64,000 bases of DNA from UHGV virus genome UHGV-0038492; one strand, given 5' to 3'. Position numbers and translations under genes: made by a program. Positions 5,700 through 54,350 of the stretch are shown here, in pieces; the first letter of the stretch is position 1; each line of letters opens with the position of its first letter. The notes under the pieces were generated by a model. The model saw only the letters and a list, made by a program, of their open reading frames with translations, made no database searches and had not been told where the DNA came from. Source of the stretch: a virus.

Positions 5700-8652
5700 A
5701 GTCTGCGGTGGTGTCGTGACGGTTGTAAACGATAACAACGTCGTCTTTCAGACCGATGTCACCACTGGCTTCAATATCCAGTTTCTTACCAATCGTTGCG
5801 CGTGCAGCTTCGGATACCACAGTAAACAGACGCATGTCTTTGTCTGGACCCATCGCATCCAACTCAACCCCGATGATCGACGTGTCAAGCGTTTCGCTGA
5901 GCTCATTACCAATCTCTGTTGCCGAGATAGTAAGATGTGAACCCAAGTAGTCGTTGATAACTTGAGACGTTTTCTTACGAATCTGCGTTAACAGATCGCT
6001 GTTGCTACGGTTAGCCGCTGTGAGGTAATAACGAACGGTAAACTGGTTTTCAGCCGGTTTCGGCGTCACCACCCCGTCTTCGGTACGTGCATCGATATAA
6101 CCCATCGTGGTGATAGGAACGAAATACCCTTCCGTACGCTCTAACAACATCGGTTTTAACGTCGGTAGAACCACGGTCACGTAGTTAACGATATTCTCAA
6201 TAACTGCGTTCAGATAGGATTTCGCAGACGCTGTGGTAGCGAATTTATAACGTGCGTCGAAGACCGCCATTTCACTACGGAACTTAATAGAACGAGATTT
6301 CGCAATCTTAGGATTACCGTACTCGTCTTTTACTAAGTCCCCTTCGTGGTGCAGGATAATCTGCTGGCCGGTTTCGTCAAGCTTAGGATCGCCTTTACGG
6401 TGTTCGTAAGTGATTTGTAGCGGTGGTGTACGGCCTGCGTCATACGTGTAAACCGGAACCCCATTCTCATCACGTTTCACCACGTCAATTTCCCACGTCG
6501 CTAACACGTCTTTGTCGTAATACTCGTAGTTGATGCTGTCAGTAACAGCACGCGCTTTACGCCAATAGTACGTCATCGCTTTACCCAGTTCGATTTTGAA
6601 TATCTCGTGGGTAATACCGATAGCGTCACGAGAAGGCGCTGTGATTAACGTATCCATCTCTACACGTTCGTAGTTCCCAGGGTAATAACCTGTGCAACCG
6701 TAGAACAGGTTAAAATCTGTCAGCAGTGGAACAGGTGTTTCCGTTGGGTTACTTCCGTTAATGCGGGTGTTGGTCAGTACCAGTTCGTCGTTACGGTCAA
6801 CGTCCAGGTTAGTTTCCAGCAAGAACTCCCAAACACGTTCACTGCCCTGCTTACCGACTAACGTACCGTTAATGTACGCCAAGGTGTTATCGGAATTACG
6901 AGGACGGAAAGACAGCTGTGCAAAGACTTGGTCATCAGTCAGTGCCTGGTAAGGTGCTTCTGACTTCGTAATCGTACGCAACACATAACCTGCTTCCGTT
7001 TTCTCGATAGTGTAGTCAGCAGTAACGACGCTGAGCTCCGTCGAGACGTTGGTCGCAATAAAGCGTTTGGAGTTTAATAGCGGTTTATCCAACTGGTAAA
7101 TACGCACGTCAATCGCTTTGTTGTTAATGTCAACAACGTAATGGAACGGTGTAAACAAATAACGGTTCGTGTTTGCTGCGTTAATCAAGTCTTCCTTACG
7201 CATGGTCTTCGCCAATACCGTCATCTCGGCATCTACAGTCAGACTGGTATCCGTAAAGCGATAGAGTGTGTCAGGAAGAATGGTCAGGCGATTACCGTTG
7301 ACTTTCACTGTCGGAAGATTAACCAGCTCGTTCCAGGAGAAATAGAACGGCGCAGTAATCGTACCAATCGGTGAGCTGACGTTAGCAATCGTCGATTCCA
7401 ACATCGGTGCTGTCATGAAGTACGTACGACTGGTCACATAGTCGTTAGGTTTAGACAGCGTAAGACCGTAATCGGAAACCGTAGCTTCAAGCTGCTTTTC
7501 CGTCACAGGTAATTTACGTGCACCCACAGCGTTATTAACAACGCGAGTACGTAAGTCACTGAACGAGAGCTGACTGCGACCACCCGACAGCATCTTCCCA
7601 GCTTTTGCTGCAAGCTGTTTAATAGAGAATGCTTTAATCGGGTTGATATAGTTCGCGTCATACTCTTCGTTTAAGTCACGTAGACTGAAGCTATACTCAT
7701 CAGACGGGTATGCAGAGATGTCTAACTCCAACGGCCCTAAGGTCGTATAGACGTCCATCCTGATAGTCCCACTGACGAGATTCTTCGCCATGTAAATAGA
7801 TGGAATCGTACAACGGATGTTGCCGTTACCCACCTGAATCAATGCTGTTGGCGTGTTCGGGTCGTAAACATCCCGACTGTGGGTGTGCTGTATCTCTACC
7901 CACTTGTTGCTGCCCGTTGCCTTCATCCAAACACGAACGTAGAAGAACTTGTTAGTGTAAGCACGGGTCATGACGAAAGTGTTGTTACCTTCGACAGTGT
8001 TACTTTCTTCTTTCACCGCATACTGCATAACCGGGATATGAATAGCCAGCAGCTGTGACGACGTTGTGTTAGTGGACGTTAGTTCCCATTCCAGGGCGTT
8101 CGTGGAAACTGGTGAAATCGGCGATTGTGTTTCAGTAATCCACAGTACCTGGAATGCCGGGTTCTCGTTCGTTCCGTATGGAAGTACACGGATTTCGATT
8201 GGGTACTGAATAGCAAACGTGTAACCAGAAACCGTAAAAACAGTGTCACGTGGGATAACGACTTTACGAACCCCCGCGATTTGCAACGGATACGCTTTCG
8301 AGATTAAGCTGTCAACGTCAATTAACAGTAACAGTTCTGTAGTAGCAGGCTGCGCAAAGACGTCAACGTAATCCACGTCTGACATGTGTCGGAACAGGTC
8401 ATCGTAGGTCTGTGCCATTGACGGGAACGTTTTAGGAATAGATTCCTGGAGCCCCATCAACGTCGCGTGTCCCATCATCGTTCCCATTTCTGCCAAATAA
8501 ACGACAGGGTCGGTAGGGTCACGGAGATAAATTTGACCATCGGCATCTTCAACATCTTGAAGCTGGTTTAGCAGCATTGTCTGCATCGCCGCAGGGTTGT
8601 GTGCGAACAGCAGAAGTTTCTTTGCCAAAGTATCGTAAGTTGTTGAACTCAT
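5698..8652 (-). CDS. hypothetical large protein (984 aa)
   Basis: Long ORF; start overlaps stop of upstream minus-strand gene at 8652 (coupled pair); no catalytic motif recognised. Confidence 0.65.
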   Translation of the reverse strand: MSSTTYDTLAKKLLLFAHNPAAMQTMLLNQLQDVEDADGQIYLRDPTDPVVYLAEMGTMMGHATLMGLQESIPKTFPSMAQTYDDLFRHMSDVDYVDVFAQPATTELLLLIDVDSLISKAYPLQIAGVRKVVIPRDTVFTVSGYTFAIQYPIEIRVLPYGTNENPAFQVLWITETQSPISPVSTNALEWELTSTNTTSSQLLAIHIPVMQYAVKEESNTVEGNNTFVMTRAYTNKFFYVRVWMKATGSNKWVEIQHTHSRDVYDPNTPTALIQVGNGNIRCTIPSIYMAKNLVSGTIRMDVYTTLGPLELDISAYPSDEYSFSLRDLNEEYDANYINPIKAFSIKQLAAKAGKMLSGGRSQLSFSDLRTRVVNNAVGARKLPVTEKQLEATVSDYGLTLSKPNDYVTSRTYFMTAPMLESTIANVSSPIGTITAPFYFSWNELVNLPTVKVNGNRLTILPDTLYRFTDTSLTVDAEMTVLAKTMRKEDLINAANTNRYLFTPFHYVVDINNKAIDVRIYQLDKPLLNSKRFIATNVSTELSVVTADYTIEKTEAGYVLRTITKSEAPYQALTDDQVFAQLSFRPRNSDNTLAYINGTLVGKQGSERVWEFLLETNLDVDRNDELVLTNTRINGSNPTETPVPLLTDFNLFYGCTGYYPGNYERVEMDTLITAPSRDAIGITHEIFKIELGKAMTYYWRKARAVTDSINYEYYDKDVLATWEIDVVKRDENGVPVYTYDAGRTPPLQITYEHRKGDPKLDETGQQIILHHEGDLVKDEYGNPKIAKSRSIKFRSEMAVFDARYKFATTASAKSYLNAVIENIVNYVTVVLPTLKPMLLERTEGYFVPITTMGYIDARTEDGVVTPKPAENQFTVRYYLTAANRSNSDLLTQIRKKTSQVINDYLGSHLTISATEIGNELSETLDTSIIGVELDAMGPDKDMRLFTVVSEAARATIGKKLDIEASGDIGLKDDVVIVYNRHDTTAD

Positions 8653-9956
8653 CAGTTAGTACCTGCCTCTGTAACAAGACCATTGACGCTGTCAAGTAAT
8701 CCTGCTTTCTTGAGAATATATTGATAGTCTGCTTGGTAGACATACCAGGTAAGCTTGCGCCGTACGGAATCGATATGTGGATAGCCGTAATAGTTAAATA
8801 AAGGCAATAACTGTGGCGCGATAGGAACAAGTTGGCTGCTGGCCATCGGGATAAAATTCCCCGAAGCGACTGAGCCGGGTTGTGGGAGCATATCTGGGTT
8901 AAACATCCCAACGGTTTTATTGAACATCTCCATGTAAAGCGGATCGTTAAACCGTGCCCCGATTGCTTGCCAGTTGATGTTAATCGTTACATCGTCATTT
9001 AACTGTGGTTTTGAGTTATCGACGTTCGCCATTTGACCCGCGTTATCGTTCATCGGCCAGGCTACACAGATTGTCCAGAAACGGGTGATGTTCCCTAACG
9101 CATCGTAACGTAGACCGTAGATACGTGACTGGTAATCAATGCGTCGTTGGATGGAGTTGCGCATCTTCGGACGGAACTTACCCATCTTAACGCCCGCCAT
9201 ATACTCCAACCACACGCCCATCATTCGCATTAATGGGTCACCGTAAGGGTTGTTTAAGGACATTGACACAGAGAACGCGTTGTTGATTTCGTGCGTAGAA
9301 TCAACCATACCCCATTGTTCGCGCATCAACCCTTCACTGGCCATCCAGTTGTCGACGGACTGATCGGGTGTTCCGCTTAAACTGATCAGCTGTGTACTGA
9401 GTATTGGTATGAACGCTTGTAGATTATCGAATCTTACCTGCGGCATAAACGGAGTACCTAAGCGGTTTCTTCGTATCCCCGTTTTGCTCTCAACAGGTGA
9501 GTCCGAAAACCCTAATTCGAAATCAGGGTCGAGAGCAGCAAGTATCGAATAATCTAAAGAGTCCTTCGGCTGCAATGCCATGTTTGACATTTTACGCGAC
9601 TTGGCAATGTTGTCGTAGCACAGGTTGAAATCGGGCCGGGTAATAAATGTTAGACCGCCGTATTCTCGGTTGATTGGCGTGGGGTTAGACGCCATCATAT
9701 GGTTGAACCCCATGTAGGGGTTGGTCAAACGCTGCGCAGCAAGACCCAAACCTACAGTAAGGCGGATACGATCGTTCCATGCCGTAAGTTCGGTGTTTGC
9801 ATCGTAAGGTGTTGCCGGATTGTTGTTGCTGAGTCGGTTATTAAAATACCCGGCAACAGAAGGCACCGCGTCCGCGTTATTCGGATTGTGGAGAGAATCG
9901 TCGTAATCAGTATTCGGGTCATACCCCGGATCGTTCTTATCTGTCTCGTCACTCAT
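8652..9956 (-). CDS. hypothetical protein (434 aa)
   Basis: ORF with RBS ggag 7 nt before ATG (minus strand); first gene of a two-gene minus-strand operon. Confidence 0.65.
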   Translation of the reverse strand: MSDETDKNDPGYDPNTDYDDSLHNPNNADAVPSVAGYFNNRLSNNNPATPYDANTELTAWNDRIRLTVGLGLAAQRLTNPYMGFNHMMASNPTPINREYGGLTFITRPDFNLCYDNIAKSRKMSNMALQPKDSLDYSILAALDPDFELGFSDSPVESKTGIRRNRLGTPFMPQVRFDNLQAFIPILSTQLISLSGTPDQSVDNWMASEGLMREQWGMVDSTHEINNAFSVSMSLNNPYGDPLMRMMGVWLEYMAGVKMGKFRPKMRNSIQRRIDYQSRIYGLRYDALGNITRFWTICVAWPMNDNAGQMANVDNSKPQLNDDVTININWQAIGARFNDPLYMEMFNKTVGMFNPDMLPQPGSVASGNFIPMASSQLVPIAPQLLPLFNYYGYPHIDSVRRKLTWYVYQADYQYILKKAGLLDSVNGLVTEAGTN

Positions 9957-9982
9957 CTTTAACTCCGGAGTTCATTAGGAAA

Positions 9983-11089
9983 ATGTTAGAAAAAACGTTT
10001 GAGACAAGCGTTGTCTCTTTCCTCTCCAGACTTCCCATGCTATTTCGTTCGCGTGCGGAGTCGACGGAGGAATTTAACTCCGTGCTCTATAATGAGCACA
10101 TTACCTTAGTCGAACAAAGCCTGCTGGGTTTAGATTACCTTCCGGGAATTCTGGAGAAAATCCAAGTTTTGCTGGCAGGAAACCAACTTACTGCAATCTC
10201 ACTGTTAACGGGTGTGCCTGACGTTGATATTATCGGTACACTGGATCAAGTAAGTACCCGTCGTAGCGCACTCGATAACGCAGTGCGTAGCGGCTCACGC
10301 TTAGCAGCACTGGCAGTCGGCGAATCTTCCCGCCTAGGATTACCATCATACGATAAAATCGGCATTGCTGTGGGTGAATGCGCCCGCCGTGTCGCACAGG
10401 AATCCAAAGGTTCCGTTACCGGTGGTAAAGCAGACCCGATTAAACAACTGTTCGATCAGGAAGGGCTGTCTAACGGGAAAATGTTCTCTGTAACGTTTGA
10501 ACGTGACGGTAATAAAGTCGAACTTCCAATGCGTTTACGTTTGGACGTTAAGTCTCTTCCGACTGAGCAGATTGAAACCCTGATTGCATTCAGCGACCAG
10601 ACGAAAACGTTCTGGGAACGTTGGCTGCGTGCGCGTGTAGGTGCACTGAGCTATGTTAAAGACATTGCGTTCTGTAACGACCTGGTAGAAGAATACCGTA
10701 AGAACCGTTATCGCGATAAGTCAGGTTACTATCGTAAGATGATGGAGAAGAAAAACGGCAACTGGCTGTCTGGCTTGCTGACGCTGGCACCGTCTATTAA
10801 TAACGCTTCTTCTGTCATGGTGGTTTCTCAAGACACTATCGACGGTCTGACTGCCCAGCTAGGCGGTGAGTTTGACGATTTCAATATTCGTCAGCGTGTC
10901 TTCAAAGACACCTTAACCGTCTATTACGTGGTAGTGGACACCGCGTGGAACCGCGTTACTATTTATACTCGTGGTCAGAACGGTTCTCAGGAACTTGATA
11001 AATCCGATTTCAGCAAAGCGAAGTCCGGTAGCGCTGATGTGAACAAAATCATTGAAGCGTATCGCTCTGGCGCACAGCCAGTTCTTTAA
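9983..11089 (+). CDS. hypothetical protein (368 aa)
   Basis: ORF diverging from the minus-strand gene only 26 nt away; start uncertain because SD spacing is short. Confidence 0.6.
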   Translation: MLEKTFETSVVSFLSRLPMLFRSRAESTEEFNSVLYNEHITLVEQSLLGLDYLPGILEKIQVLLAGNQLTAISLLTGVPDVDIIGTLDQVSTRRSALDNAVRSGSRLAALAVGESSRLGLPSYDKIGIAVGECARRVAQESKGSVTGGKADPIKQLFDQEGLSNGKMFSVTFERDGNKVELPMRLRLDVKSLPTEQIETLIAFSDQTKTFWERWLRARVGALSYVKDIAFCNDLVEEYRKNRYRDKSGYYRKMMEKKNGNWLSGLLTLAPSINNASSVMVVSQDTIDGLTAQLGGEFDDFNIRQRVFKDTLTVYYVVVDTAWNRVTIYTRGQNGSQELDKSDFSKAKSGSADVNKIIEAYRSGAQPVL

Positions 11090-11099
11090 GGGGTAAGGC

Positions 11100-12035
11100 A
11101 TGGCATTCCCGAATATGCTCGCTATGTTGTTGCCGAGCTTTGAAGCAACAAACTTGAAAAACCAGCTTTCGTCCAACTGCGATGCAATTGGCGAACAACT
11201 TTTACCACGTTTCCAGTCTTTACAAGAACTGGTAGCGTCGAAAGAAGGCAAACCGTTTAAATCGAAAACGGTACAAGAAATATCCGATGAAGTGGTTAAC
11301 TACCTGCGGACTTCCGGTCTGGAAGCCAAAGGTCTCCGCAATCCATCGATGTTAGAGTACATCGTTTCCTCGATGGAAAACGTGTTGCAGTTGCGTTCTT
11401 TCTTAGACCAATGTATTGCGCGTGACATTGGTAAATCGTTAGTCACGTCTTCAATGACGTTTAATAAATTAACGGTGCTCAGACTGCTTGACCTGATTGA
11501 TTTCTTCACAGGTTACAGTGCTACGTTACTTAACTACGTTACCGCAGAAGAGATTGCCGCTGTTGAAGGCTCGAATATTGAAGTGAAGGGCATCGGTCCG
11601 AATGACCTTCAATACCTCAATACTCGTTCGGTCTCTTACTGCATCGCCATCCGTGTTTTGGCAACGCCGGTAAATAAACTGAAAGCGGATTATGCCGAAA
11701 TCCCAGAAGCGATTTTCAACGACGAAACTTACGGTGAGTTGGTTCAGCAGTTCGGTTCGGGCTCGACTGACCCGCTGGGAATGAGCAGTGTACCGTTCCC
11801 GATCTCACTGATACTTCGCGTTCGTTTGAATATTGCTGAAAGGCAGATGGATAAATACGACGAGTGTGTAGAAGCAGCGAAAGCTGCGGAGTTGCGTATC
11901 CTGCTTTACAAAAAGCAAGTAGCGGAAGGTAAGGGAGATGCGCATATCGAAAAACTCATCGAGCTAAGTGAAAAGCATCTGTTGGAACTCAAGCATAAGC
12001 GTGAGCGTCTTGAGAAGAAATACGGTTTAGTGTAA
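11100..12035 (+). CDS. hypothetical protein (311 aa)
   Basis: ORF with RBS aaggggtaagg before ATG 11100. Confidence 0.6.
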   Translation: MAFPNMLAMLLPSFEATNLKNQLSSNCDAIGEQLLPRFQSLQELVASKEGKPFKSKTVQEISDEVVNYLRTSGLEAKGLRNPSMLEYIVSSMENVLQLRSFLDQCIARDIGKSLVTSSMTFNKLTVLRLLDLIDFFTGYSATLLNYVTAEEIAAVEGSNIEVKGIGPNDLQYLNTRSVSYCIAIRVLATPVNKLKADYAEIPEAIFNDETYGELVQQFGSGSTDPLGMSSVPFPISLILRVRLNIAERQMDKYDECVEAAKAAELRILLYKKQVAEGKGDAHIEKLIELSEKHLLELKHKRERLEKKYGLV

Positions 12036-12052
12036 ACCGTTAGGAGAGCCTC

Positions 12053-12613
12053 ATGTTTGAGCACGATAGTCCCGATTTTAATGTGGCCGTAGAGCGCATT
12101 AAAACCTATATGTCGATTTTATCAAAAAACCCAATCGACACACACGATGACGAGCTTATTCACAAAACGCTGGAAGCGTGTGCGGTTATATTGCCGTATT
12201 TTCGTCTGTTCGCTGCTGACTCTGTGCAGCAGGTATTATATGACGAATATCCGCAGGTCGGATTTACCTTTAATACGTTTTATAACGAAAGCGTAGCCTT
12301 CCTGCTTGATGGTAAACGACGCACCGTGACGTTAGGACAGTGGTCCGTATTGCTGTCGTCGTACATGAATGATGTTCGCAATACGAAGAACGTTGAACAG
12401 ACGGGCTCATTGGGTGCACGTCTTCTTGCTGCTGCGTTTGGTCGCCGGGGTACTGTACGTAATATGGGTTCCGCTCACCAGTCTGTTGAGTGTAGCAAAC
12501 GTCTTTTATCTTATGCAGACCATGAACTGCTGGCACGCTGGATGACACGCCCGAACGGGTTGTCCGACATGATCTCGTCGTTAGCAGTGTTTTTGAAAAT
12601 CGCACGTCCCTAA
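12053..12613 (+). CDS. hypothetical protein (186 aa)
   Basis: ORF with RBS aggagag before ATG 12053. Confidence 0.6.
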   Translation: MFEHDSPDFNVAVERIKTYMSILSKNPIDTHDDELIHKTLEACAVILPYFRLFAADSVQQVLYDEYPQVGFTFNTFYNESVAFLLDGKRRTVTLGQWSVLLSSYMNDVRNTKNVEQTGSLGARLLAAAFGRRGTVRNMGSAHQSVECSKRLLSYADHELLARWMTRPNGLSDMISSLAVFLKIARP

Positions 12614-12672
12614 GGGGGCCCCTCATTCTAGGGGCGTGTAATTGGGTTATATAACCAAAGGAAATAAACGAA

Positions 12673-13944
12673 ATGGCAAATTTCGCAAAAACTCGCGCCG
12701 CTCGTGAATCAATGGAAGCGGCCGATGAAGTAATCGACGGTATCAGCAACGTTGAACCGGCAGAAGAGAACCTGGACGTCCAGCTTGCAGAAGTAGCCTC
12801 TATGGATGGTGAACTGGATCAGCTGGAAACTGACGGTGAAACTTTGGCCGCCGATACTGAGCGTACTGAAGACGCTATCGATCAGGCGGAAGAAGCCGTT
12901 GCTAACGGTGAAGAAATGCCGGAAGAAGCGGTTGCCCTGCACGAAGTGGCCCAGGAATCCATCGCACGTCGTTGGTGCCTGGAACGTACCAAACTGGCTC
13001 GTGAATCCTATCGCCGTGGCCGTGGCATGACTGCTGCTGCGCAGGAAGGCTGGAAAGAAACCCTGAAAGATCTTTACGATCGTTTCATTCAGTTCTGTAA
13101 AGAAGTGATTGCGAAGATCAAAGACCTGAAACTGAAATATTTCAACGTCGGTAAGACCGCACAGAAACGTGCGAAGAAATATCAGGAAATGCTGCGTAAG
13201 CTGGGCAAACAGAAGAAAGATGAAATCTCTGGTGGCTTTATCACCAAGCTGTCGATCGAAGGTAAATTCGATGCTGCTGGCTCTATCGCTATTGCGAAAG
13301 AAGTTACCGCTGGCAAAGCTAAAGGTTCCATCAGTGTTCTGGAAAAACAAGCTGGTGAAGCTGTGACCGCTGTGAGCAAAGGTGACGACGACGCATTCAA
13401 AGCAATGCGTGGCGATCAGCCGGTAGAACTGTTTGGTAAAGCGGCTTCTAAACTGCACACTCTGCCGAACTTTGAAAAAGGTGATGCGTCCAAACTGCTG
13501 GCTCTGCCGGGCAACGCATACGTTCAGGCTGGTACTAAAGAACTGGCTGGCGGTCACAAGTTCACTGCAATTGCATTCATGAGCACCGGTGACGCGTCTG
13601 AAGATAAAGACGTGAAAACTCCGTCCGTTTCTGAAATGGCTGGCGCTGCTTCTGCTCTGGAAGCAATCGGTAAAGGCTTCGAAGCTGTACTGAAAGATTT
13701 CCGTGCTTATGACGCTGAAATCGTGAAGCTGCAACAGGCTGCTGAGAAAGCTGCTACCGCACTGAATACCGAAAAAGACCAGAGCAAGTGGGATGGCCTG
13801 CGTAATGCACGTCAAGCTGCTGATTGGTCTGTGAAGAACTACCAGACCCTGAACCGCGCCGTTAGCTATGTTGCTAACACCGTTATTAGCGGTCTGAACG
13901 GCTACCTGGGTGCTGGTATCGGTGCTTACGAAAAATCTAAATAA
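12673..13944 (+). CDS. abundant protein, paralog A of tandem pair (putative high-copy virion/head internal protein with acidic N-terminal region)
   Basis: Strong RBS aaggaaa; codon usage strongly biased (ctg, cgt, ggt, aaa, gaa); shares N-terminus MANF.K..ARESME, core RKLGKQKKDEISGGFI and C-terminus GLNGY..AGI.AYEK with the next gene. Confidence 0.55.
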   Translation: MANFAKTRAARESMEAADEVIDGISNVEPAEENLDVQLAEVASMDGELDQLETDGETLAADTERTEDAIDQAEEAVANGEEMPEEAVALHEVAQESIARRWCLERTKLARESYRRGRGMTAAAQEGWKETLKDLYDRFIQFCKEVIAKIKDLKLKYFNVGKTAQKRAKKYQEMLRKLGKQKKDEISGGFITKLSIEGKFDAAGSIAIAKEVTAGKAKGSISVLEKQAGEAVTAVSKGDDDAFKAMRGDQPVELFGKAASKLHTLPNFEKGDASKLLALPGNAYVQAGTKELAGGHKFTAIAFMSTGDASEDKDVKTPSVSEMAGAASALEAIGKGFEAVLKDFRAYDAEIVKLQQAAEKAATALNTEKDQSKWDGLRNARQAADWSVKNYQTLNRAVSYVANTVISGLNGYLGAGIGAYEKSK

Positions 13945-14026
13945 TCATTTAGATTCGTAGTTCCGTACAGTTCTTGAAATAAATCATCAGGGGAACAACG
14001 CGTTCCCCTTAGAGGAAAAGCTTAAA

Positions 14027-15292
14027 ATGGCGAATTTCTACAAAAACAAAATTGCTCGTGAGTCTATGGAGTCTACTTCTACTGTAGTTCCAGACGGCAT
14101 CGAACTGCCAGCAGAATCTGTAGAAGGTACTCTGGCCGATATCGAGCATGACACCAAACCGATCGAAGCAATGGACGCAGACGCAGAGCTGCTGGCCGAA
14201 GACGGCGACGAAACCGATGCTCAGCTGGAAGTCCTGGACGAAGCTCAGGCTGCTGCTGACGGTGAAGGCGCTGAAGACGGCGAAGAGCCGATGGACGCTG
14301 AAGAAGACATGCCGGACGACGCTGCTAAAGCGCTGGACGTTGCTCAGGAATCCATCCGTTCTCGCTGGAACTTCGAACACCGTTCTTCTGTTGCTCACGA
14401 ATCCTACGGTTCTCGTAACCGCCGTCAGGTTGCTCGTGAATCCCTGTGGGAAGACATTAAAGCCTTCATGAAACGTATCCTTGATTGGCTGAAAGAACAG
14501 GGTCGTAAGATCAAAGATCGTTGGCTGAAATTCCACAACCAGGGTAAATCTATCCAGGCGCGTGCGAAGAAAAACGACGCAATTATCCGTAAGCTGGGCA
14601 AACAGAAGAAAGATGAAATCTCTGGTGGTTTCATTAAATCTCTGTCCATCGACGGTAAGTTCGTTGGTGACGACTCCACGAAACTGAAAGGTATTCTGAC
14701 CCAGGTTTCCAGCTTCTATAGCTCTAAAATGCCTTCTATGGCTGCTAAAGCCTCTGCCATGGTTGAAGATGTTACTAAAGGTAACGGCGCTAAGATTGAA
14801 AACCTGAAAGCCGAGTTCGGTGAACTGGCTAAACAAGATAATCTTAAGAACTTCAAGCTCGGTAACATGGCTGTTAAGTCTGAGTACGATAACGAAGGCG
14901 GTTTCTCCACTACCTTCGTTGAGTCTGAAAACACCGTTGAAACCAGCGTGAAAACTCCGTCTGTTGGCGATCTGGCTAAACTCAATGCCTTCTTCAACGA
15001 AGTGGGTAAACAGATTGAGAAGAACGTTCAGGATTATCGTAAAGTTGAAAGCGCACGTAAGTCTTTCGAAGACAGCATCGATAAGCTGCTGAAAGAAATC
15101 GACAAAGTTAAGATCGATGAAAAACCGGAACTGACCGAAAACGTGCGTCGCGCTCGTCGTTACGTTACCAGTGTTAACCAGGCTCTGTCTCTGGGTGAGA
15201 AAGTTATTGCTTCTACTCAGAAACATCTGGCTAACGGTCTGAACGGTTATATCTCAGCAGGTATTGCCGCTTACGAAAAGACTAAAGCTTAA
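14027..15292 (+). CDS. abundant protein, paralog B of tandem pair
   Basis: Same features as paralog A; 41 nt identical to 13195-13235 at 14588-14628; acidic N-terminal region; terminator follows. Confidence 0.55.
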   Translation: MANFYKNKIARESMESTSTVVPDGIELPAESVEGTLADIEHDTKPIEAMDADAELLAEDGDETDAQLEVLDEAQAAADGEGAEDGEEPMDAEEDMPDDAAKALDVAQESIRSRWNFEHRSSVAHESYGSRNRRQVARESLWEDIKAFMKRILDWLKEQGRKIKDRWLKFHNQGKSIQARAKKNDAIIRKLGKQKKDEISGGFIKSLSIDGKFVGDDSTKLKGILTQVSSFYSSKMPSMAAKASAMVEDVTKGNGAKIENLKAEFGELAKQDNLKNFKLGNMAVKSEYDNEGGFSTTFVESENTVETSVKTPSVGDLAKLNAFFNEVGKQIEKNVQDYRKVESARKSFEDSIDKLLKEIDKVKIDEKPELTENVRRARRYVTSVNQALSLGEKVIASTQKHLANGLNGYISAGIAAYEKTKA

Positions 15293-15307
15293 CTGAACAG
15301 TTAGGCA

Positions 15308-15355
15308 AGAGAACCACCCTGTAATGGGGTGGTTCTCCCTTTTCTTTTTTTTTCG
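15308..15355 (+). terminator. Rho-independent terminator
   Basis: Stem agagaaccaccc / ggggtggttctc followed by ccttttcttttttttt. Confidence 0.8.
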
Positions 15356-15366
15356 ATTAAAAATAA

Positions 15367-15408
15367 TCTCAGATAGATATTACCTTAGTGAGATTACGCT
15401 GTAATCTT
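15367..15408 (+). promoter_or_regulatory. conserved promoter-like element copy 1 (AT-rich box TATATTAC-like + palindrome)
   Basis: tctcAGATAGATATTACCTTAGTGAGATTACgctGTAATCt; one of five related copies, each 20-40 nt upstream of an ATG with SD. Confidence 0.5.
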
Positions 15409-15443
15409 TTAACGACCTGTTTATTACGTTTAGGAGAATTATC

Positions 15444-15620
15444 ATGAACCGCTTCCAATCCAAGAAAGAATTCCAGACAACCGAAGACATGGTGGTCACT
15501 GTGGAAACACCAACCACTGATGTCGTTTGCTTAGTGACACCCATCATAGCGCACAAGAGAAAAGAAGTTTCTCAGTGCCCAGAGGTTCGGGCAGTAAAAC
15601 GTTTTATTAAAGCGCTATAA
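15444..15620 (+). CDS. small hypothetical protein (58 aa)
   Basis: RBS taggaga 7 nt before ATG; first ORF after promoter-like element; weak terminator follows. Confidence 0.4.
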   Translation: MNRFQSKKEFQTTEDMVVTVETPTTDVVCLVTPIIAHKRKEVSQCPEVRAVKRFIKAL

Positions 15621-15625
15621 TTGCT

Positions 15626-15654
15626 AAGCCCTTCGTAGAGGGCATTATTTTTTC
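15626..15654 (+). terminator. weak terminator-like hairpin + T-run
   Basis: Short stem gccct / agggc then attattttttc. Confidence 0.4.
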
Positions 15655-15673
15655 GACCTTTAGGAGAATAGAA

Positions 15674-16225
15674 ATGAACAAATTTAATATCTTAGACGCT
15701 AAAATCGTATCCGAGTCTTCTATTCAGCAAGAAATCTTTCGTGTTCAGTTCGGTGAGAAAGTTCTGAATATTCCGCGCCCAGTTATGATTGGCTTAGCGA
15801 TATTCGTTAACAACAGTCATTGCAACGGTTCGGCGTTGTCAGTTCTTGAGTACGGTAACTATCAGTTCTATATTCCAGAACACCTCGAGTATAACCGTTT
15901 TATTGAACTTAAACCGTTCTATAAGTTCATGCTTGATGCAGGGTATTCGATTCTAACCAAAACGTATATTCGTGACTACTCGAAGTTAGAATCTTTCTAT
16001 CGTGCCCGTGGTTTTCGTGTCCCACAACCGTTTGACGGATACCAGACACGTGTTGTGTTAACTGCACCGTTAACGAAAGAACTGGCTTCCTACAAACTGG
16101 ATATCGAGCAGAAACTGCTGCGTGACGACTTACTGAAAATCTATAACCAGTTGTCCGTGGTTCCTTCTTCAACTATCTCGAACATTGAACCAGAATACGG
16201 AATAAGACAATACATGGAAGGTTAA
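15674..16225 (+). CDS. hypothetical protein (183 aa)
   Basis: RBS taggagaa before ATG 15674. Confidence 0.6.
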   Translation: MNKFNILDAKIVSESSIQQEIFRVQFGEKVLNIPRPVMIGLAIFVNNSHCNGSALSVLEYGNYQFYIPEHLEYNRFIELKPFYKFMLDAGYSILTKTYIRDYSKLESFYRARGFRVPQPFDGYQTRVVLTAPLTKELASYKLDIEQKLLRDDLLKIYNQLSVVPSSTISNIEPEYGIRQYMEG

Positions 16226-20842: not shown

Positions 20843-22161
20843 TGTCGTTTGGTCGGTTACAGAACATAGCAAACGTGCATATCGCACAAGCGGCGGGATT
20901 ACCGGCCATCGAATACGTACCTATCATTACGGTACGTGGCACAGTTATCAGCGTGTTTAAAACGTTGTCGATAATCCATGCCAGTAACTTCGCGCAGGAC
21001 TTAACGACCATCACCCATCTTACCGTGATGATACCGTTAAGCCAACAGCGTGTGTTAACGTCTTCCGCAGACGGGGATTTGTCCGTGAAAATTCTAATGC
21101 GGACAATGAACAAGAAAACCGTTGCGAAACTCGACTATCGGGGTATCGTCGTAAACAACCACGATCCCGACATGGAATCACCCACGATGTTCTTAGGTGA
21201 GTCTGACCAGAAAGCGTTAGCGGTCGTCACCCTGGAGCTGATGGACGAGTCAATGTGGTTCTTACGTTGCCGACAAGTCGGTGGGATTTATCACGAGACA
21301 GACGGTCTTAGTGTTGTTCGTGCACTGCTGTCAGATACGTTACCTACTGGTGATGCGCCAGAAGGTCAGTTGGTGGGCGTGGAATACGAGGAAGAGGAGC
21401 AACAACCGTATCGGGATATTTTGATTCCTGACTCGGAAAGTTTCTTGTCTGTGTTCGATTACCTTCAGAATCGTTACGGGGTTTATAGCCAAGGGCTGGG
21501 GGTGTTCCTTTACAAACACCGCTGGTATATTTTCCAACCTTGGGATTCTAAGAAGTTTTCATCAGCGAAGAATAAGCTGGTGATTATAAATCTACCGAAA
21601 GAGAAAGCAGCGTATCTGAATAAGACTTGCCACATTGACGGTGACGTGATTTACCTGATTTGTGGGGGTGATGTACACACCTTCGAAGATAAAGACTCCT
21701 TAGCACTAAACCAAGGTACCGGTTATCGTGTGGGGTCTATCCGTGCGTTGGATGGTCGTGCGTCCTCGTTCTCGTCAGGTGATGTTTCTGCTACAACGTC
21801 TGATTCGTTCGTGTCAGCGGCTGACCCGACGCAATATCCGGGTGGGGTAGTTAACGCACCAATTGACCCGAACCAACACTTCTCGGACACAGATAAACCG
21901 CAACGGTCTAAGTTAGCGGCGGCGAAAGGAACGCTAACCGCAACAACCTGGAACGCATCAACGTATGGCCTACTCCGTCCGGGGATGGCAGTAAAATACA
22001 TTTATGCGAATAACTATGGTGTATACACGCGTTACGGAACATTGGTTGCAGAAGTTTTCCAAGGTGCAATTGATGGCGGTTCAGCGGCTTCACCACGGTT
22101 TAATACCATTAGTCAGTTGACGTTGTGGCTGACTAATGAAAATTTTACATCCACAACGTAA
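20842..22161 (+). CDS. hypothetical protein (439 aa)
   Basis: ATG overlapping previous stop (TAATG); RBS aaaggggagg. Confidence 0.65.
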   Translation: MSFGRLQNIANVHIAQAAGLPAIEYVPIITVRGTVISVFKTLSIIHASNFAQDLTTITHLTVMIPLSQQRVLTSSADGDLSVKILMRTMNKKTVAKLDYRGIVVNNHDPDMESPTMFLGESDQKALAVVTLELMDESMWFLRCRQVGGIYHETDGLSVVRALLSDTLPTGDAPEGQLVGVEYEEEEQQPYRDILIPDSESFLSVFDYLQNRYGVYSQGLGVFLYKHRWYIFQPWDSKKFSSAKNKLVIINLPKEKAAYLNKTCHIDGDVIYLICGGDVHTFEDKDSLALNQGTGYRVGSIRALDGRASSFSSGDVSATTSDSFVSAADPTQYPGGVVNAPIDPNQHFSDTDKPQRSKLAAAKGTLTATTWNASTYGLLRPGMAVKYIYANNYGVYTRYGTLVAEVFQGAIDGGSAASPRFNTISQLTLWLTNENFTSTT

Positions 22162-22193
22162 GTTATGTCGACAGCAACCTAAAGGATTTGTTA

Positions 22194-24941: not shown

Positions 24942-26504
24942 TCAAAAGAGTTCGTCACCCATACCGCCTGTAAAGACGTTAATCGACGATGCAGTCACTG
25001 TTTCTTCTTTATCGCAATCCCAAGGCAGAATGCCAACTTCACGGAAAGGTATTACTGTATAATGGTAAGCTTCTTTAGTATCGATAATTGTACGGTGTTT
25101 ACCACGTTGTACTTCTAAGTAACTATGTCCATTGACAACACGTTTGTTAAAATACATCTCACCGTCAGCTTCGTTATCCAAGCTGGAGCAGTTATCGTAA
25201 AGACCGCGACCTGGTAAGTTCTTACAGAAACTTGCTGGGTCTAACGCTTTTAATTTTTTGCCTTCTGGTGAGATTTGGTGTGGTGCTAACAAGAAACCAC
25301 GGTTACGTACTACCTGGATGTTTCGAGCGATACGATAAATTTCTTTAATGTCGCTACCGGCAATCCCGTTACCGTGACCTGCTTTACTGATAGTCCCGAA
25401 ATAGTCTCCGCGAATCCCAGCTACATGATAACCTCGACGCTTTAAGTCCAGTATTAAGTCGTTTAAGTAGTGTATTTTAAAATCTGAGTTTGTGTGTTTC
25501 TGAAAGATGTATTCCCAACCGTTAGCCCGCATTTTACTACAGAGGTAGTCCGACATTTTTGTGTTGTGTAAAGCTTTCTCTTCGTCGGTAGCGTTTTCAG
25601 AAGCAACCATAACCGGTGCTTCACCTTCAAAATGACCGTAGAGCGCTTGGTACGCATACGCCAAGTTAACGTCCAGTTCGTTCTCTAAACTTAAATCGAG
25701 AATAACCGGCTGCAAATCCCCTTTAACATTTTCCATTACTTTTTCGGGTGTATTGAATACCGGAATACTGATAGACAACAACAGACTAAAAAGTGATTTA
25801 CAGTTAAAAGGCAGTGCAGGCATTAACCAAAGCTCTTCGGTAATCCCTTTGTTACAACCCAGCATCTGGTTAATGGCTTTCCATCCGGTACGTAAACCGT
25901 TACCCGCTGCTTTCTTACTGATGGAGTCGAACACATGCACGAACGGTGCACGGTTATCCGTAATAAGCTCGCCTACGAGTGAGGGAATCTTATTATGAGA
26001 GCGTTCACTGAACGTAGAGAGACTATCTCTGAGGTCGTTGAGCGCCGTTTGTAAATCAACGCGCGTTTCGGTTCCGTTCAGTGCGCCTAACGTACGACCT
26101 AATTTTTGTTTCAGTTGTACGCCTTGAATAGCTTGACGTAATTGGAAGTAGTATTGTGCTACTTGACGGTTAAGATGCTCGATGCGTGCTTCTGGTTCTT
26201 CTGGAATATCATCTTCCAGGAATTTGGTAATCGTATCGTATAGAGGACGTATTTGCGTAGTGGCCAACTTCAAACGTTTCATGACGTTTGTGTGGTCGTA
26301 AGGCATACCGCCGTCTATGATGGATGTGATGATATCCTTGATTTCGACGAGGGCGGCACGTTCGTCACCTTCCTCTACGTAATCAGGAAGCTTAGCCTCT
26401 AACAGCACTTTTCTTATGACCTCATGATCCTTCTCAGGGTCGGTCAACAGACTTTCAGTGTATAGTGTGGCTAATGCGGTTATCAACATCATTTTGTTAT
26501 TCAT
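24942..26504 (-). CDS. hypothetical protein (520 aa)
   Basis: Long minus-strand ORF; hairpin ggggagc/gctcccc just downstream of its stop; hydrophobic N-terminus. Confidence 0.6.
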   Translation of the reverse strand: MNNKMMLITALATLYTESLLTDPEKDHEVIRKVLLEAKLPDYVEEGDERAALVEIKDIITSIIDGGMPYDHTNVMKRLKLATTQIRPLYDTITKFLEDDIPEEPEARIEHLNRQVAQYYFQLRQAIQGVQLKQKLGRTLGALNGTETRVDLQTALNDLRDSLSTFSERSHNKIPSLVGELITDNRAPFVHVFDSISKKAAGNGLRTGWKAINQMLGCNKGITEELWLMPALPFNCKSLFSLLLSISIPVFNTPEKVMENVKGDLQPVILDLSLENELDVNLAYAYQALYGHFEGEAPVMVASENATDEEKALHNTKMSDYLCSKMRANGWEYIFQKHTNSDFKIHYLNDLILDLKRRGYHVAGIRGDYFGTISKAGHGNGIAGSDIKEIYRIARNIQVVRNRGFLLAPHQISPEGKKLKALDPASFCKNLPGRGLYDNCSSLDNEADGEMYFNKRVVNGHSYLEVQRGKHRTIIDTKEAYHYTVIPFREVGILPWDCDKEETVTASSINVFTGGMGDELF

Positions 26505-26517
26505 GGAGCATCCTTAA

Positions 26518-27042
26518 ATGCAAATTCGTTTTAGTCCACCGTGGGAAGTTCAGCCTAACATAGATAAAGGCGCTGCCGTTAAAAGTGTAGAATTGCTCCA
26601 GGCAGGGTTCTTTAACTGGTTATATGACTGTCCGAATGGTTTCAGTTCTATCATTATACCTGAAGTAAGTCGTTCTGCTATTTATAAAGCGTTAATGGCT
26701 CCGCCTGTACTTCCAGGTAAATATTATGATCAGGTGTTACGTCTGGTCGAATCAGGCGAAAAGGTTTCCCTTGACGATTTATATGGGGAAACAATTCCTT
26801 GTCGCTTACGCTGGGTCTTTACCCAACGTGGTGATACGATTGTGGCGTCATTTGCAGAAGCGAAGTCCGGTTCGGGTTTTTCTTCGGGTGAAGACCACGC
26901 TGCGAAAAAGATGTTCTGCGCAGAACTTTTTAAATATATGCGTACCAAGACTCGCGTCGTGGATGACTGCTTCAGTACCTCAACGCAGTTTGCCGCTAAC
27001 GAAGTGCTGACGCAATTATACGCATGTCATTTATCTCATTAA
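26518..27042 (+). CDS. hypothetical protein (174 aa), immediately upstream of capsid gene
   Basis: ORF starting 14 nt from the divergent minus-strand gene; ends 12 nt before capsid gene start. Confidence 0.6.
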   Translation: MQIRFSPPWEVQPNIDKGAAVKSVELLQAGFFNWLYDCPNGFSSIIIPEVSRSAIYKALMAPPVLPGKYYDQVLRLVESGEKVSLDDLYGETIPCRLRWVFTQRGDTIVASFAEAKSGSGFSSGEDHAAKKMFCAELFKYMRTKTRVVDDCFSTSTQFAANEVLTQLYACHLSH

Positions 27043-27054
27043 GGTATTAAACAA

Positions 27055-29340
27055 ATGAAAGATACCCGAATCTCTAATTTAGAGAAACTCGTAGAAGCCG
27101 GTACTAGTCTGGCCCAAAACGTCATCGGCAACAACACCGCCAGCGAAATGTGGAATACGATTGTTGCAGGCGAGTCCGTACGCAGCAACGCAAAAGTGTT
27201 TGGCGTTCTGCGTGACGAAGCATCACAGCACTATGCCAACGCTTTTGGTGGCAAGAAAATGTCTCATGCTGCGACTGTCGCCTCCGCAATGATTCTGGGT
27301 GCAGCTAACCACGGTAAAGACCTGCAAGAACGTGTTGCCCAGGAATACGCTAAGCCGGAATTCCACACCAAGTATAACCTGGATATTGGTATCCCTGGTG
27401 CGCAAGGTGGTGACTGGGGTCGTGAGCGCATGGTTGTTGCTCAGGAATATTACAGCAACAAAGACTACGACAAAAACCTGGGCCTGACCTGGACCCTGAA
27501 CGTACGTGCTCTGGAAACTCAGTCCAAGTTTGCTGAAACGCTGTTCCCGACCATTACCGTTGACACCAACGATGTTGGTATTACCGTACGTACTAAAGTG
27601 ACTACCGTTTCTCGCGGTATCATGAACGCGCTGCTGAGCAAAGACGTGGTTGAAGACCATCGTCGTCCGCTGCACAACGCACTGACTGACCACACCGTTC
27701 TCCAGGACGAAGCGATCAACATCGTTCCTTACGTAATGGAAACCGGTGAAAACCAGGAATACTTCGTAAGCGAAGAACTGGTTCCGAACGAAAAAGTTCG
27801 CCTGGGTCGTGTACCTCCGTACCCGACTAACTACCTGAGCTTTGCAAACGACACGCTGAACCTGTTCCAGCTGTCTGCGCATCCGGGTATCGTTCAGGAA
27901 GGTTACGATGAAACTGATGAAATCGCACCGGGTTGTGCTCTGGGCAGCCTGCTGATTTCTGTACGTAAACCTGCCGAAGAAGCGAAAGCAGGTAAATTCA
28001 TCAAACTACACGTTCGTGACATGCAGTTCGCAACCTTCCAGCGTCCTGCTGAAGGTGACGGCCGTGAACTGGTTCTGCAATTCCGTCGTACCGCGTTCTC
28101 TCTGAATGCGAAAACCACTGACTGGAAAGGCGACGCTATTCCGGCTCTGCAAGCACTGGGTCAGAACTCCTACACCCTGCGCTACGTTATCACCATCACC
28201 ATGTCCCTGTTCACCAGCGGCCAGTTCGGTGGTAAAGTAGACATTTCCGGCCACAAACTGGAAATCGAAGGTCTGTACGATGCAACTGGTAACAAAGTTG
28301 ATACCAAGTCTGGTACCGGTAAAGTTATCCTGGACGGCCTGAAACTCGAACTGATGGGCTGGCGCTTCGATGGTACTCGTACCAACGAAAACCGTCGTAC
28401 CCAGGGTCTGCTGCTTGACCCAATTTGGGAACAGGAAAACTACAAACTGCAATACGGTTCTCCGATTCTGACCAAGTCTCCGGTTGGTGTTGAATACGAC
28501 GACACTGAACGTCTGGACGACCTGATCTCTGCGGTGAACATCCGTAACGAACAGCTGGCTATTACTCAGACGCTGTCTTACACTGAAGCAGTACGTAACG
28601 CAGCCGCTGCGATGATCACTCCGTGGGACAAACCGGCTATCCGTGGTCTGGGCCGTCACTGGGTTGCTCCGTGGTTCAAAGAGTCTGACTACAAAGTCGA
28701 TGAAGTTGTTCAGTCTCTGGATACCAAAGAAGCGCTGATCAACGCTCGTCAGGGTCTGTTGCAGCGTATCGGTAGCCAGGTAACTCAGGCTATCCAGGAT
28801 TCTCGTTTCATTCCTGCACTGCGCCTGCTGACCGCTGATCCGGACATTCTGCCGAAAGTTATCATCGCAACTGACGAACCGACTGCATCTATGCTGCTGC
28901 TGGTTCAGGGCGACCAACGTCTGCTGGGCGACCGTTATGAATACGAAGTCGTTACCACCAACGATGACCGCTGGCGTATCTACAACGCAGCTGACGATTC
29001 CTGGACTCGTCGTCTGCAATGGTTCCTGAAAGTTCCGACTGCGGACGATGGTTCCTACTGCGTACTGAACTGGGGTAACCACTTCTGGTCTCCGATCATG
29101 GTTACCAACATCAACATCCAGCGTAACGGTTCTACTTCTAAAGAACTGGCTGTACAGCCGCGTAACGCGCATATCTGCCACTGCCCGATCACTGGTCTGA
29201 TTTGGGTTAAAGGCATCACCAAACTGGTTGAAGAAAAACTGGCTTACAACGTTTCTGTAGAACAGAACGGCCAGAAACAAACCGACGGTGGTGTAGCAGG
29301 TAATGTTGCTGGCGACGGTAAAGACAAAGCTGGTAAATAA
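27055..29340 (+). CDS. major capsid protein (phiKZ-like jumbo phage type), putative
   Basis: 761 aa (~83 kDa) ORF with RBS aagg, the strongest codon bias in the window, strong terminator after it; size and composition fit my recollection of phiKZ/SPN3US-type capsid proteins; no search run. Confidence 0.6.
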   Translation: MKDTRISNLEKLVEAGTSLAQNVIGNNTASEMWNTIVAGESVRSNAKVFGVLRDEASQHYANAFGGKKMSHAATVASAMILGAANHGKDLQERVAQEYAKPEFHTKYNLDIGIPGAQGGDWGRERMVVAQEYYSNKDYDKNLGLTWTLNVRALETQSKFAETLFPTITVDTNDVGITVRTKVTTVSRGIMNALLSKDVVEDHRRPLHNALTDHTVLQDEAINIVPYVMETGENQEYFVSEELVPNEKVRLGRVPPYPTNYLSFANDTLNLFQLSAHPGIVQEGYDETDEIAPGCALGSLLISVRKPAEEAKAGKFIKLHVRDMQFATFQRPAEGDGRELVLQFRRTAFSLNAKTTDWKGDAIPALQALGQNSYTLRYVITITMSLFTSGQFGGKVDISGHKLEIEGLYDATGNKVDTKSGTGKVILDGLKLELMGWRFDGTRTNENRRTQGLLLDPIWEQENYKLQYGSPILTKSPVGVEYDDTERLDDLISAVNIRNEQLAITQTLSYTEAVRNAAAAMITPWDKPAIRGLGRHWVAPWFKESDYKVDEVVQSLDTKEALINARQGLLQRIGSQVTQAIQDSRFIPALRLLTADPDILPKVIIATDEPTASMLLLVQGDQRLLGDRYEYEVVTTNDDRWRIYNAADDSWTRRLQWFLKVPTADDGSYCVLNWGNHFWSPIMVTNINIQRNGSTSKELAVQPRNAHICHCPITGLIWVKGITKLVEEKLAYNVSVEQNGQKQTDGGVAGNVAGDGKDKAGK

Positions 29341-29406: not shown

Positions 29407-29438
29407 TTGGATAGATATTATCAAAGGGAGACTGTCAG
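29407..29438 (+). promoter_or_regulatory. conserved promoter-like element copy 3 (divergent variant)
   Basis: ttggATAGATATTATCAAAGGGAGActgtcag; shares the AT-rich box and GAGA half-site but the palindrome is degenerate. Confidence 0.35.
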
Positions 29439-49676: not shown

Positions 49677-49717
49677 CAGATATATATTACCTTAGTGAGA
49701 TTACACAGTAATCTCTT
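49677..49717 (+). promoter_or_regulatory. conserved promoter-like element copy 4
   Basis: tcAGATATATATTACCTTAGTGAGATTACacaGTAATCTC with perfect 8 bp inverted repeat GAGATTAC/GTAATCTC. Confidence 0.5.
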
Positions 49718-49750
49718 TACGACTTGTTCTACAGATTAGGATTAAATATC

Positions 49751-50110
49751 ATGGCTTACAATCACAACTCTATTGTTTTAGCAAAACGTAAATTCGGTCT
49801 TCATCTTTCTTACGTGATTCGTCATTTGACAGCGAAAGACATTACACAGCGTGAACTTGCCCAGCTTGCGAAAGTTTCACAGCCGGTTATTTCATCTATT
49901 AAGAACGATCATAGCGAACGCCTGAGTCTACCAATAATGATGAAGGTTGCTGATGCAATTCGTCTGAAATATCAGATTACGTTTAATTCTGTTAAAGGGC
50001 GTTGCTCAGTAACGGTTCACGTAGAGTCTGCGTTGGACTACGTTGCAAATACGTCCCTTAAACGTACAGCGAAAAATATTCGTTTTGTTACTAACAGCGC
50101 AACACACTAA
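49751..50110 (+). CDS. XRE-family helix-turn-helix DNA-binding protein, putative regulator (119 aa)
   Basis: HTH-like segment ITQRELAQLAKVSQPVISSIKN; RBS agga before ATG 49751; directly downstream of promoter-like element copy 4. Confidence 0.55.
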   Translation: MAYNHNSIVLAKRKFGLHLSYVIRHLTAKDITQRELAQLAKVSQPVISSIKNDHSERLSLPIMMKVADAIRLKYQITFNSVKGRCSVTVHVESALDYVANTSLKRTAKNIRFVTNSATH

Positions 50111-54254: not shown

Positions 54255-54295
54255 TGCCCCTCTCTCCGTTTGGAGAGAGGGTGTATTTATTTTTA
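54255..54295 (+). terminator. Rho-independent terminator
   Basis: Stem cccctctctcc / ggagagaggg with loop gttt, then gtatttattttt. Confidence 0.8.
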
Positions 54296-54350
54296 CGCGT
54301 ATAGCCGTAGTTATGCACAAGTAAACAAAATTAATTGAGGAAACAATCTG

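Follow-up and report, generated by a model that had tools for sequence, protein, structure and literature searches.

Stem-loops that determine the stability or processing of operon mRNAs include the REP hairpins of E. coli papBA and malEFG, the 5' hairpin of ompA, the C(UUCG)G hairpins of phage T4, and structures that act as obstacles to RNase E. The element described here resembles these in being a GC-rich helix without a U-tract that lies between low-copy and high-copy cistrons, and in showing covariation, the mark of selection on RNA pairing. The same phage has a second hairpin before the next paralogous gene and others elsewhere in its genome. The element differs from the operon stem-loops in that about 40 nucleotides (nt) of its primary sequence are frozen across genera, in that its 5' arm is coding sequence that includes a stop codon, and in that a conserved GGTTAACC box is attached to it.

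A second point of comparison is phage phiKZ, in which the start-site motif of late promoters is TATG (PMC4666361, PMC7598289, PMC12809450), written T-3ATG+1 (PMC4666361). Hairpins between the phiKZ internal head protein genes (94,290 to 94,330, 97,620 to 97,655, and 101,340 to 101,370; locus L068) are directly followed by TTATG. Because the hairpins directly precede TTATG, the phiKZ terminator motif, which ends in YTTATK, overlaps the TATG of the late promoter. This suggests that the sites are coupled modules that join a terminator motif (PMC10914365) with a late promoter (PMC4666361). The locus studied here lies in the same neighborhood (gp89 to gp91 and phiKZ_IP paralogs) and likewise has a GC hairpin followed by a short Shine-Dalgarno (SD) leader. 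It differs in that no TATG follows the helix, and the phiKZ hairpins are mutually different in sequence. The phiKZ gp91/gp92 junction has a 9-nt gap, with no hairpin or such helix.

The nut boxB and put RNAs of lambda-type phages share with this locus a short GCCC(C)U...AGGG(G)C stem without a U-tract, and the two adjacent hairpins that can be drawn here are similar to HK022 put. Unlike lambda boxB, however, the short stem has a variable, pyrimidine-rich loop rather than a GNRA-like pentaloop, and no boxA was found. Also, there is no terminator to override before the second paralog, and the pairing under selection is that of a longer helix. Phage translational operators, such as the targets of T4 gp43 and RegA, the MS2 coat protein hairpin, and the Mu com-mom system, are, like this element, gene-specific conserved hairpins near a ribosome-binding site; here, however, the SD sequence and start codon lie outside the helix and no cognate protein is known. 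The element is an undescribed but otherwise conventional cis-acting RNA structure whose sequence is conserved to an unusual depth.

The window that we analyzed is a 64,000-nt stretch of virus genome UHGV-0038492, and comparison with known genomes identifies its source as a jumbo phage related to phiKZ and belonging to the SPN3US/phiEaH2 group. Collinear matches around the element, at ~75% nucleotide identity, come from jumbo phages such as Erwinia phage phiEaH2 and Salmonella phage SPN3US. A much closer relative, with 97.5% identity, is NZ_CP173450.1, a circular record of 221,873 bp filed as an E. coli plasmid. This record is a complete jumbo phage genome labeled as a "plasmid" of a urinary E. 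coli isolate (loci L063 to L067), and its deposition as such suggests either a carrier state or co-purified phage. A host-derived origin of the element was rejected, as the sole E. coli match is this phage itself. An IMG/VR match to a high-GC contig (L059) was set aside as chance. Two-piece matches in Salmonella phages SPFM5 and SPFM8 (GenBank LR535903 and LR535906; L010 and L011) are spurious and stem from scrambled 60-nt blocks, apparently permuted near the gp52/gp53 junction, in these entries.

Gene order in the region, with gp88 on the minus strand followed by gp89, gp90, gp91, and the internal head protein paralogs, is the same as in phiKZ. The plus-strand open reading frame (ORF) just upstream of the element (12053 to 12613) encodes a phiKZ gp91-like protein of the vertex-binding protein family (Pfam PF25618, 29 bits against a cutoff of 27). 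Downstream on the same strand is paralog A (12673 to 13944), an SPN3US gp53-like internal head protein of the phiKZ_IP family (Pfam PF12699, E = 1.7e-72), whose identity is also backed by synteny with SPN3US and phiKZ; the SD sequence AAGGAA (12658 to 12663) precedes its ATG start at 12673. Pfam likewise identified paralog B (14027 to 15292), a phiKZ-like internal head protein homologous to SPN3US gp54, and an ORF of the phiKZ major capsid protein family (27055 to 29340). The first canonical intrinsic terminator after the gp89-gp91-A-B block, on the plus strand with a 13-bp stem and a long T-run, is at 15309 to 15350, and an early promoter box (15377 to 15384) lies downstream of it. The first-pass annotation had supposed that paralog A is very highly expressed, and the literature on its homologue bears this out: in SPN3US, gp53 and gp54 reach by spectral counts a virion abundance nearly that of the major capsid protein, and they far exceed the amounts expected from simple co-expression with upstream genes (PMC5694885).

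Within the 59 nt between these two genes, the same annotation had singled out a GC hairpin without a T-run and a perfect palindrome. The letters of the hairpin are as described: GCCCCT (12618 to 12623) and AGGGGC (12630 to 12635) enclose a 6-nt loop, and GTGTAATT, not a T-run, comes next. This pairing is probably not the selected one, as covariation favors a longer helix. The latter is an irregular stem-loop at 12598 to 12643 on the plus strand, found in the MFE and alifold structures. It comprises a lower stem (12598 to 12602 with 12639 to 12643), a main stem (12603 to 12612 with 12629 to 12638), and an upper stem (12613 to 12616 with 12620 to 12623) around a triloop (12617 to 12619), with a variable 3' bulge at 12624 to 12628. 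The last codons of the gp91-like ORF (ATC GCA CGT CCC) and its TAA stop (12611 to 12613) form the 5' arm. The 3' bulge breaks the run of 19 helix pairs; RNase III sites comprise about 20 bp of double-stranded RNA.

Among 15 distinct sequences, 87.7% of the cells of the 19-pair helix are paired, and sliding the partner arm lowers this to 35 to 56%. Compensatory changes on both sides occur in five pairs (nine cells), a result reached by 0 of 500 shuffles. As distant relatives we used two Vibrio phages, in which the gp91-like protein is 28% identical, and four metagenomic contigs (38 to 59%). In these, A-U at 12599/12642 becomes C-G, G-C at 12606/12635 becomes A-U, G.U at 12602/12639 becomes U-A or A-U, U.G at 12607/12634 becomes U-A or C-G, and a mismatch at 12601/12640 becomes G-C or A-U. 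Changes that are compensatory or preserve wobble pairs maintain the long helix in loci L069, L070, L072, and L073 and in the Vibrio phages.

On the plus strand, a covariance model gave 69 to 76 bits (71 quoted) at one known site per enterobacterial genome or locus and 36 bits at the Vibrio phage site; on the minus strand, scores were 12 to 18 bits (15 quoted). This strand asymmetry and the G.U pairs at 12602/12639 and 12607/12634 argue for a sense-strand RNA present once per genome. Scans of the entire 222-kb relative genome and of 24 kb of phiKZ sequence with the model returned nothing further, and no second copy was returned by exact or 3-mismatch search, BLAST, or whole-genome regular expressions, so we rejected the idea of a repeated element or terminator family member. 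Rfam gave no match at E <= 1 across 11500 to 16000.

Several other readings of the junction were tried and dropped. Long-range pairing of 12542 to 12552 with 12632 to 12642 is absent in relatives, and a switch that sequesters the SD sequence was discarded because the SD is unpaired in all predicted conformers. Frameshifting (+1 or -1), readthrough, or gene-60-type bypass at CCC-TAA fails since every frame stops within 6 to 14 codons. Extension past the stop runs into an in-frame TAA (12652 to 12654) before paralog A begins, and the frames are broken by loop indels whose lengths are not divisible by 3. A minus-strand ORF at 12270 to 12749 is a mechanical call that the same indels break between phages.

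Perfect 12-bp palindromes occur in the window at the chance rate (15 seen versus 16 in shuffles), and a 6-bp GC stem is likewise common by chance. It is therefore conservation, and not their own statistics, that argues for the reality of the hairpin and the palindrome. Across 12 GenBank phages from five genera and 21 IMG/VR loci, the string ATCGCACGTCCCT[A/G]A[G/T]GGGGCCCCT-(loop)-AGGGGCGTGT is retained unchanged, whereas the coding sequence flanking it diverges (alignments of 10 and then 12 phages, in which the loop has 4 to 6 nt). The loop of the short stem varies between phages in both sequence and length (3 to 6 nt). In an alignment of five genomes from five genera across 9983 to 15700 (5.7 kb), the most conserved 40-mer is 12600 to 12639, with 83% invariant columns compared to a mean of 38%, and 12507 to 12546 ranks second.

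We also mapped synonymous sites of the gp91-like ORF in 21 sequences. There were 66 degenerate codons with an invariant amino acid, 13 of which keep one codon in every sequence. All but two of these 13 cluster, at GTA-TTA-TAT (12233 to 12241), TAT-GCA-GAC..GAA (12512 to 12526), and ATC-GCA-CGT-CCC (12599 to 12610). The three clusters coincide with two TATG boxes and with the 5' arm of the helix, which this map thus places under synonymous constraint.

The palindrome GGTTATATAACC exists, at 12645 to 12656 rather than one base earlier as first reported (12644 to 12655). It had also been placed about 20 nt upstream of the SD sequence; it actually ends 3 nt before the GGA of the SD and 17 nt before the ATG (12673). 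It sits inside an imperfect extended dyad, TTGGGTTATATAACCAAA (12642 to 12659), and has the core GGTT..AACC. Only the lineage of the window has the 12-bp form. In most relatives the palindrome is 10 bp long (GGTTATAACC), and in Derbicusvirus, the metagenomic relatives, and the Vibrio phages it is reduced to an 8-bp form, GGTTAACC, often with TTGG/CCAA flanks that produce dyads of 10 to 14 bp. The 8-bp core is present in all lineages examined, including the Vibrio phages. The box lies 1 to 5 nt 3' of the helix in enterobacterial and metagenomic lineages, the Vibrio phages have an additional hairpin between the two, and the distance from the box to the SD sequence downstream is 3 to 8 nt. It is a single-copy feature of the complete 222-kb relative genome and of the 64-kb window; other copies of the 8-bp core in the loci fall within genes, without the A-rich segment and SD context. 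Half-site spacing is 0, 2, or 4 bp across lineages, and a dimeric DNA-binding regulator is awkward to reconcile with a center that varies in this way. An RNA hairpin formed by the palindrome itself would be plausible for the 10- to 12-bp forms with their flanks, but it was rejected because several 8-bp lineages allow only 2 to 3 bp, and a stable hairpin is not possible with the 8-bp form. Elsewhere in the window, a different palindrome, AACTCCGGAGTT (9961 to 9972), occupies the 26-nt gap between two divergent genes (8652 to 9956, minus; 9983 to 11089, plus); it is conserved in all five genomes compared and has a GGAG SD sequence in both directions.

The first-pass annotation took the palindrome for a possible middle or late promoter, or a regulator site, of a class serving structural genes and distinct from the early promoter motif. 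The distinction from the early motif holds. The early box of this clade is CAGATATATATTACC, found after terminators, and the pattern CAGATA(T)ATATTACC is not matched; the element has only ATAT.ACC in common with it and lacks the flanks, and relatives carry the 8-bp form. A promoter class is not supported. No TATG occurs in 12614 to 12672, so a phiKZ-type late promoter is not indicated. The middle promoter box (AAanTTACc-like, ~24 nt before the start) is absent, the element reading TAACC with no TATG downstream, and no sigma-70 promoter (-35/-10 with 16- to 18-nt spacing) was called in 12500 to 12700. The predicted recurrence near other structural genes also failed to appear, as GGTT(AT)nAACC, TATATAACC, and the hairpin arms each occur once in the 221,873-bp relative genome. 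What survives of the regulator-site proposal is a conserved cis element, which may still play a gene-specific regulatory part, conceivably at the level of DNA.

Recognizable promoter-like signals are found elsewhere in the window. Early-type boxes at 15377 to 15384, 49684 to 49691, and 29415 to 29422 (the variant ATATTATC) stand directly 3' of T-run terminators, and an inverted repeat, AGATTAC-NNN-GTAATCT, follows those at 15377 and 49684. Middle-type sequences, TTTTTAC(AGTT)-N10-12-TATG, lie upstream of genes at 22144 to 22167 and 54292 to 54315, and many more are present in NZ_CP173450.1; their architecture parallels the phiKZ middle promoter, in which an AAanTTACc box near -24 is combined with TATG at the start. 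In NZ_CP173450.1, TATG is scarce (730 copies on both strands, versus 1000 to 2600 for the other G-containing tetramers counted) and is enriched upstream of genes. It is present in 5 of the 76 plus-strand 10-mers common to five genomes, compared with 0 to 2.4% for control tetramers, and in 0 of 42 on the minus strand.

Two conserved plus-strand blocks centered on TATG lie in the gp91-like ORF. The block at 12507 to 12546, with TATG at 12512 to 12515, is a candidate late promoter and start site 161 nt upstream of the paralog A ATG, and GTATTATATGACGA (12233 to 12246), with TATG at 12239 to 12242, is a second candidate. Both are invariant across genera, with synonymous sites fixed. Because the fixed-codon clusters match TATG boxes and the intergenic stretch is without a promoter motif, we infer that the late promoters of paralog A are likely embedded in the upstream gene and that the features flagged initially lie in the leader. 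Additional conserved TATG sites were seen at 26415 and 26782. A conserved palindromic hairpin at 26913 to 26942, consisting of GTTCTGCGCAGAAC, TTTTT, and AAATATATG, is inside the ORF at 26518 to 27042 and ~115 nt upstream of the major capsid gene; it is similar to the phiKZ hairpin-TTATG modules, and the 50 nt from 26888 to 26937 are identical in the window, SPN3US, and phiEaH2.

As for intrinsic termination, the long helix provides a GC-rich stem-loop but no U-tract. Immediately 3' of it is GGGTTATATAAC, with no T-run, and a terminator scan did not call it; long T-runs accompany all clear terminators of the window.

The short hairpin GCCCCT-CATTCT-AGGGGC (12618 to 12635, plus strand) competes with the long helix for its 3' arm. 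No covariation was found for its 6-bp stem among relatives, and in three lineages G12634A disrupts it (C12619-G12634) while preserving the long helix. However, when the end of the upstream ORF is masked, as it would be by a ribosome, the short hairpin becomes the predicted fold. The short stem is thus probably at best an alternative pairing, the long helix being the selected one. In the Vibrio phages the stop codon does not fall within the 5' arm but further along, so strict coupling to termination of translation is not conserved.

A useful comparison is the GC hairpin without a T-run at 13989 to 14009 (plus strand), 5' of the paralog B SD sequence (TAGAGGA). Here, six of eight pairs show compensatory changes among 12 phages, and the sequence is wholly different from phage to phage. 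The A-B intergenic region has 64% sequence conservation, yet a GC hairpin is always found just before the SD. Covariation of the paralog B pairs indicates that hairpins in this position are selected RNA structures, and about 10 other T-run-less GC hairpins adjoin SD sequences in the 222-kb relative genome. What sets the paralog A element apart from the paralog B hairpin is that its sequence, too, is frozen.

Taken together, our preferred reading, to which we assign a probability of about 0.5, is that the element is not a promoter but an RNA structure, encoded once and on the sense strand, that forms part of the leader or intercistronic region of the first internal head protein mRNA. Its structure, strand, conservation, and uniqueness and the absence of promoter motifs are direct observations; the start sites and a role in stability, processing, or coupling we infer. 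Late transcription would begin at one or both TATG boxes of the upstream ORF (12512, 12239) or extend into the region from the gp89-like gene, and a stable helix without a T-run would not terminate these transcripts efficiently. We regard the helix as a barrier rather than a terminator because it lacks a T-run and because the first canonical terminator comes only past paralog B (15309 to 15350). Such a barrier would set the A-B segment, with its very high expression, apart from the low-copy cistrons upstream, shielding the upstream RNA as a 3' cap and stopping RNase E 5'-to-3' scanning and processing that enter from upstream. It is possible that the single-stranded GGUUA box at the foot of the helix is a processing or recognition site. 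Ribosomes terminating on the upstream ORF would melt the 5' arm, and the 3' arm could then re-pair with CCCCU to form the short hairpin; that ribosomes could remodel the helix in this way is suggested by the change in predicted fold upon masking. The coding nature of the 5' arm and the two alternative partners of the 3' arm might plausibly explain why the sequence is frozen here but drifts freely in the hairpin before paralog B. Against this reading, a simple stability hairpin needs no sequence invariance, and phiKZ itself lacks such a helix. The invariance of the AAGGGGGCCCCT helix top and of the box suggests sequence-specific recognition by some factor, and the DNA dyad symmetry of the 8-bp core would fit a protein site.

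Alternatively, the site could act at the level of DNA, with the GGTT(AT)nAACC dyad, alone or together with the GC dyads, serving as an operator or promoter-proximal element bound by a phage protein or a form of RNA polymerase; binding would switch on the internal head protein genes. This would account for an 8-bp core that is kept even where an RNA hairpin is impossible and for dyads that in several lineages, as in TTTGGTTAACCAAA and ATTGGTTAACCAAT, reach 10 to 14 bp. The site lies just before a very highly expressed gene (PMC5694885), and phiKZ middle promoters depend on an unknown factor (PMC4666361). The annotation of the relative genome also includes a gene for an XRE-family regulator. By coordinate mapping this gene apparently corresponds to the ORF at 49724 to 50110, directly after an early promoter box, and its product is a possible DNA-binding factor. 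We nonetheless consider a DNA-level site unlikely. There is one copy per genome, the early box is not matched, TATG is lacking from 12614 to 12672 although the clade clearly uses it, the start would need to fall ~3 to 15 nt from the SD sequence, half-site spacing shifts by 2 and 4 bp between lineages, and the G.U pairs and strand asymmetry of the neighboring helix point to RNA. Slightly less likely again is a leaky or factor-dependent terminator, or an attenuator, of the upstream structural operon, read by the non-virion RNA polymerase and conserved in sequence because the polymerase or a factor recognizes it. A GC-rich helix right after a stop codon would suit this role, as would a CCCCT...AGGGG stem similar in composition to the canonical terminators of the phage and the arrangement of the phiKZ internal head protein genes, which are separated by a hairpin and then TTATG; many mapped 201phi2-1 and phiKZ terminators are non-classical and have conserved sequence motifs (PMC11512511, PMC10914365). 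However, the T-run of all clear terminators in the window is missing here, terminator sequences normally drift, as the paralog B hairpin does, and termination would deprive the most abundant genes of transcription unless they had a promoter after the helix, where none is seen. The phage nucleus established for phiKZ-like phages would, if it forms here as well, uncouple transcription from translation, which would make ribosome-dependent attenuation improbable.

A translational operator seems to us more doubtful still. Here a phage or host RNA-binding protein would recognize the GGUUAACC box along with the invariant top of the helix, thereby controlling when or how strongly the gp53-like protein is translated. 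Such an operator would explain why sequence invariance exceeds structural need, and it fits a single-copy, gene-specific element 3 to 8 nt from the SD sequence. Yet no candidate binding protein was identified, the SD is unpaired in every predicted conformer, parts of the bulge and loop are variable, and the SPN3US literature searched holds no experimental hint of such control. Finally, the palindrome and the short GC stem are of sizes that arise at the chance rate, and they might have no function at all. This is very improbable, being contradicted by the invariance, the covariation, the synonymous-site constraint, and orthologous retention down to phages whose flanking-gene proteins are 28 to 40% identical.

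Returning to the RNA element in the paralog A leader, we consider it a long shot that the invariant helix top (AAGGGGGCCCCU) and the box together form a recognition signal read by a conserved phage factor or by the phage RNA polymerase. If so, they would constitute an RNA operator or "address" particular to this gene, governing when, in what amount, or where in the cell the massively abundant internal head proteins are made; in a nucleus-forming jumbo phage, the mRNA might be marked for export or preferential translation. A sequence-specific element of post-transcriptional control would thereby be described for the first time in a phiKZ-like phage. If the element is a stability hairpin and nothing else, it would be a routine addition to phage RNA biology. 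A genetic system exists for SPN3US, making the prediction directly testable. Apart from the four-base late promoter, little is understood of the signals that govern gene expression in phiKZ-like jumbo phages, and the conserved helix and the putative embedded TATG promoters offer mutable targets for learning how neighboring genes reach very different protein doses.
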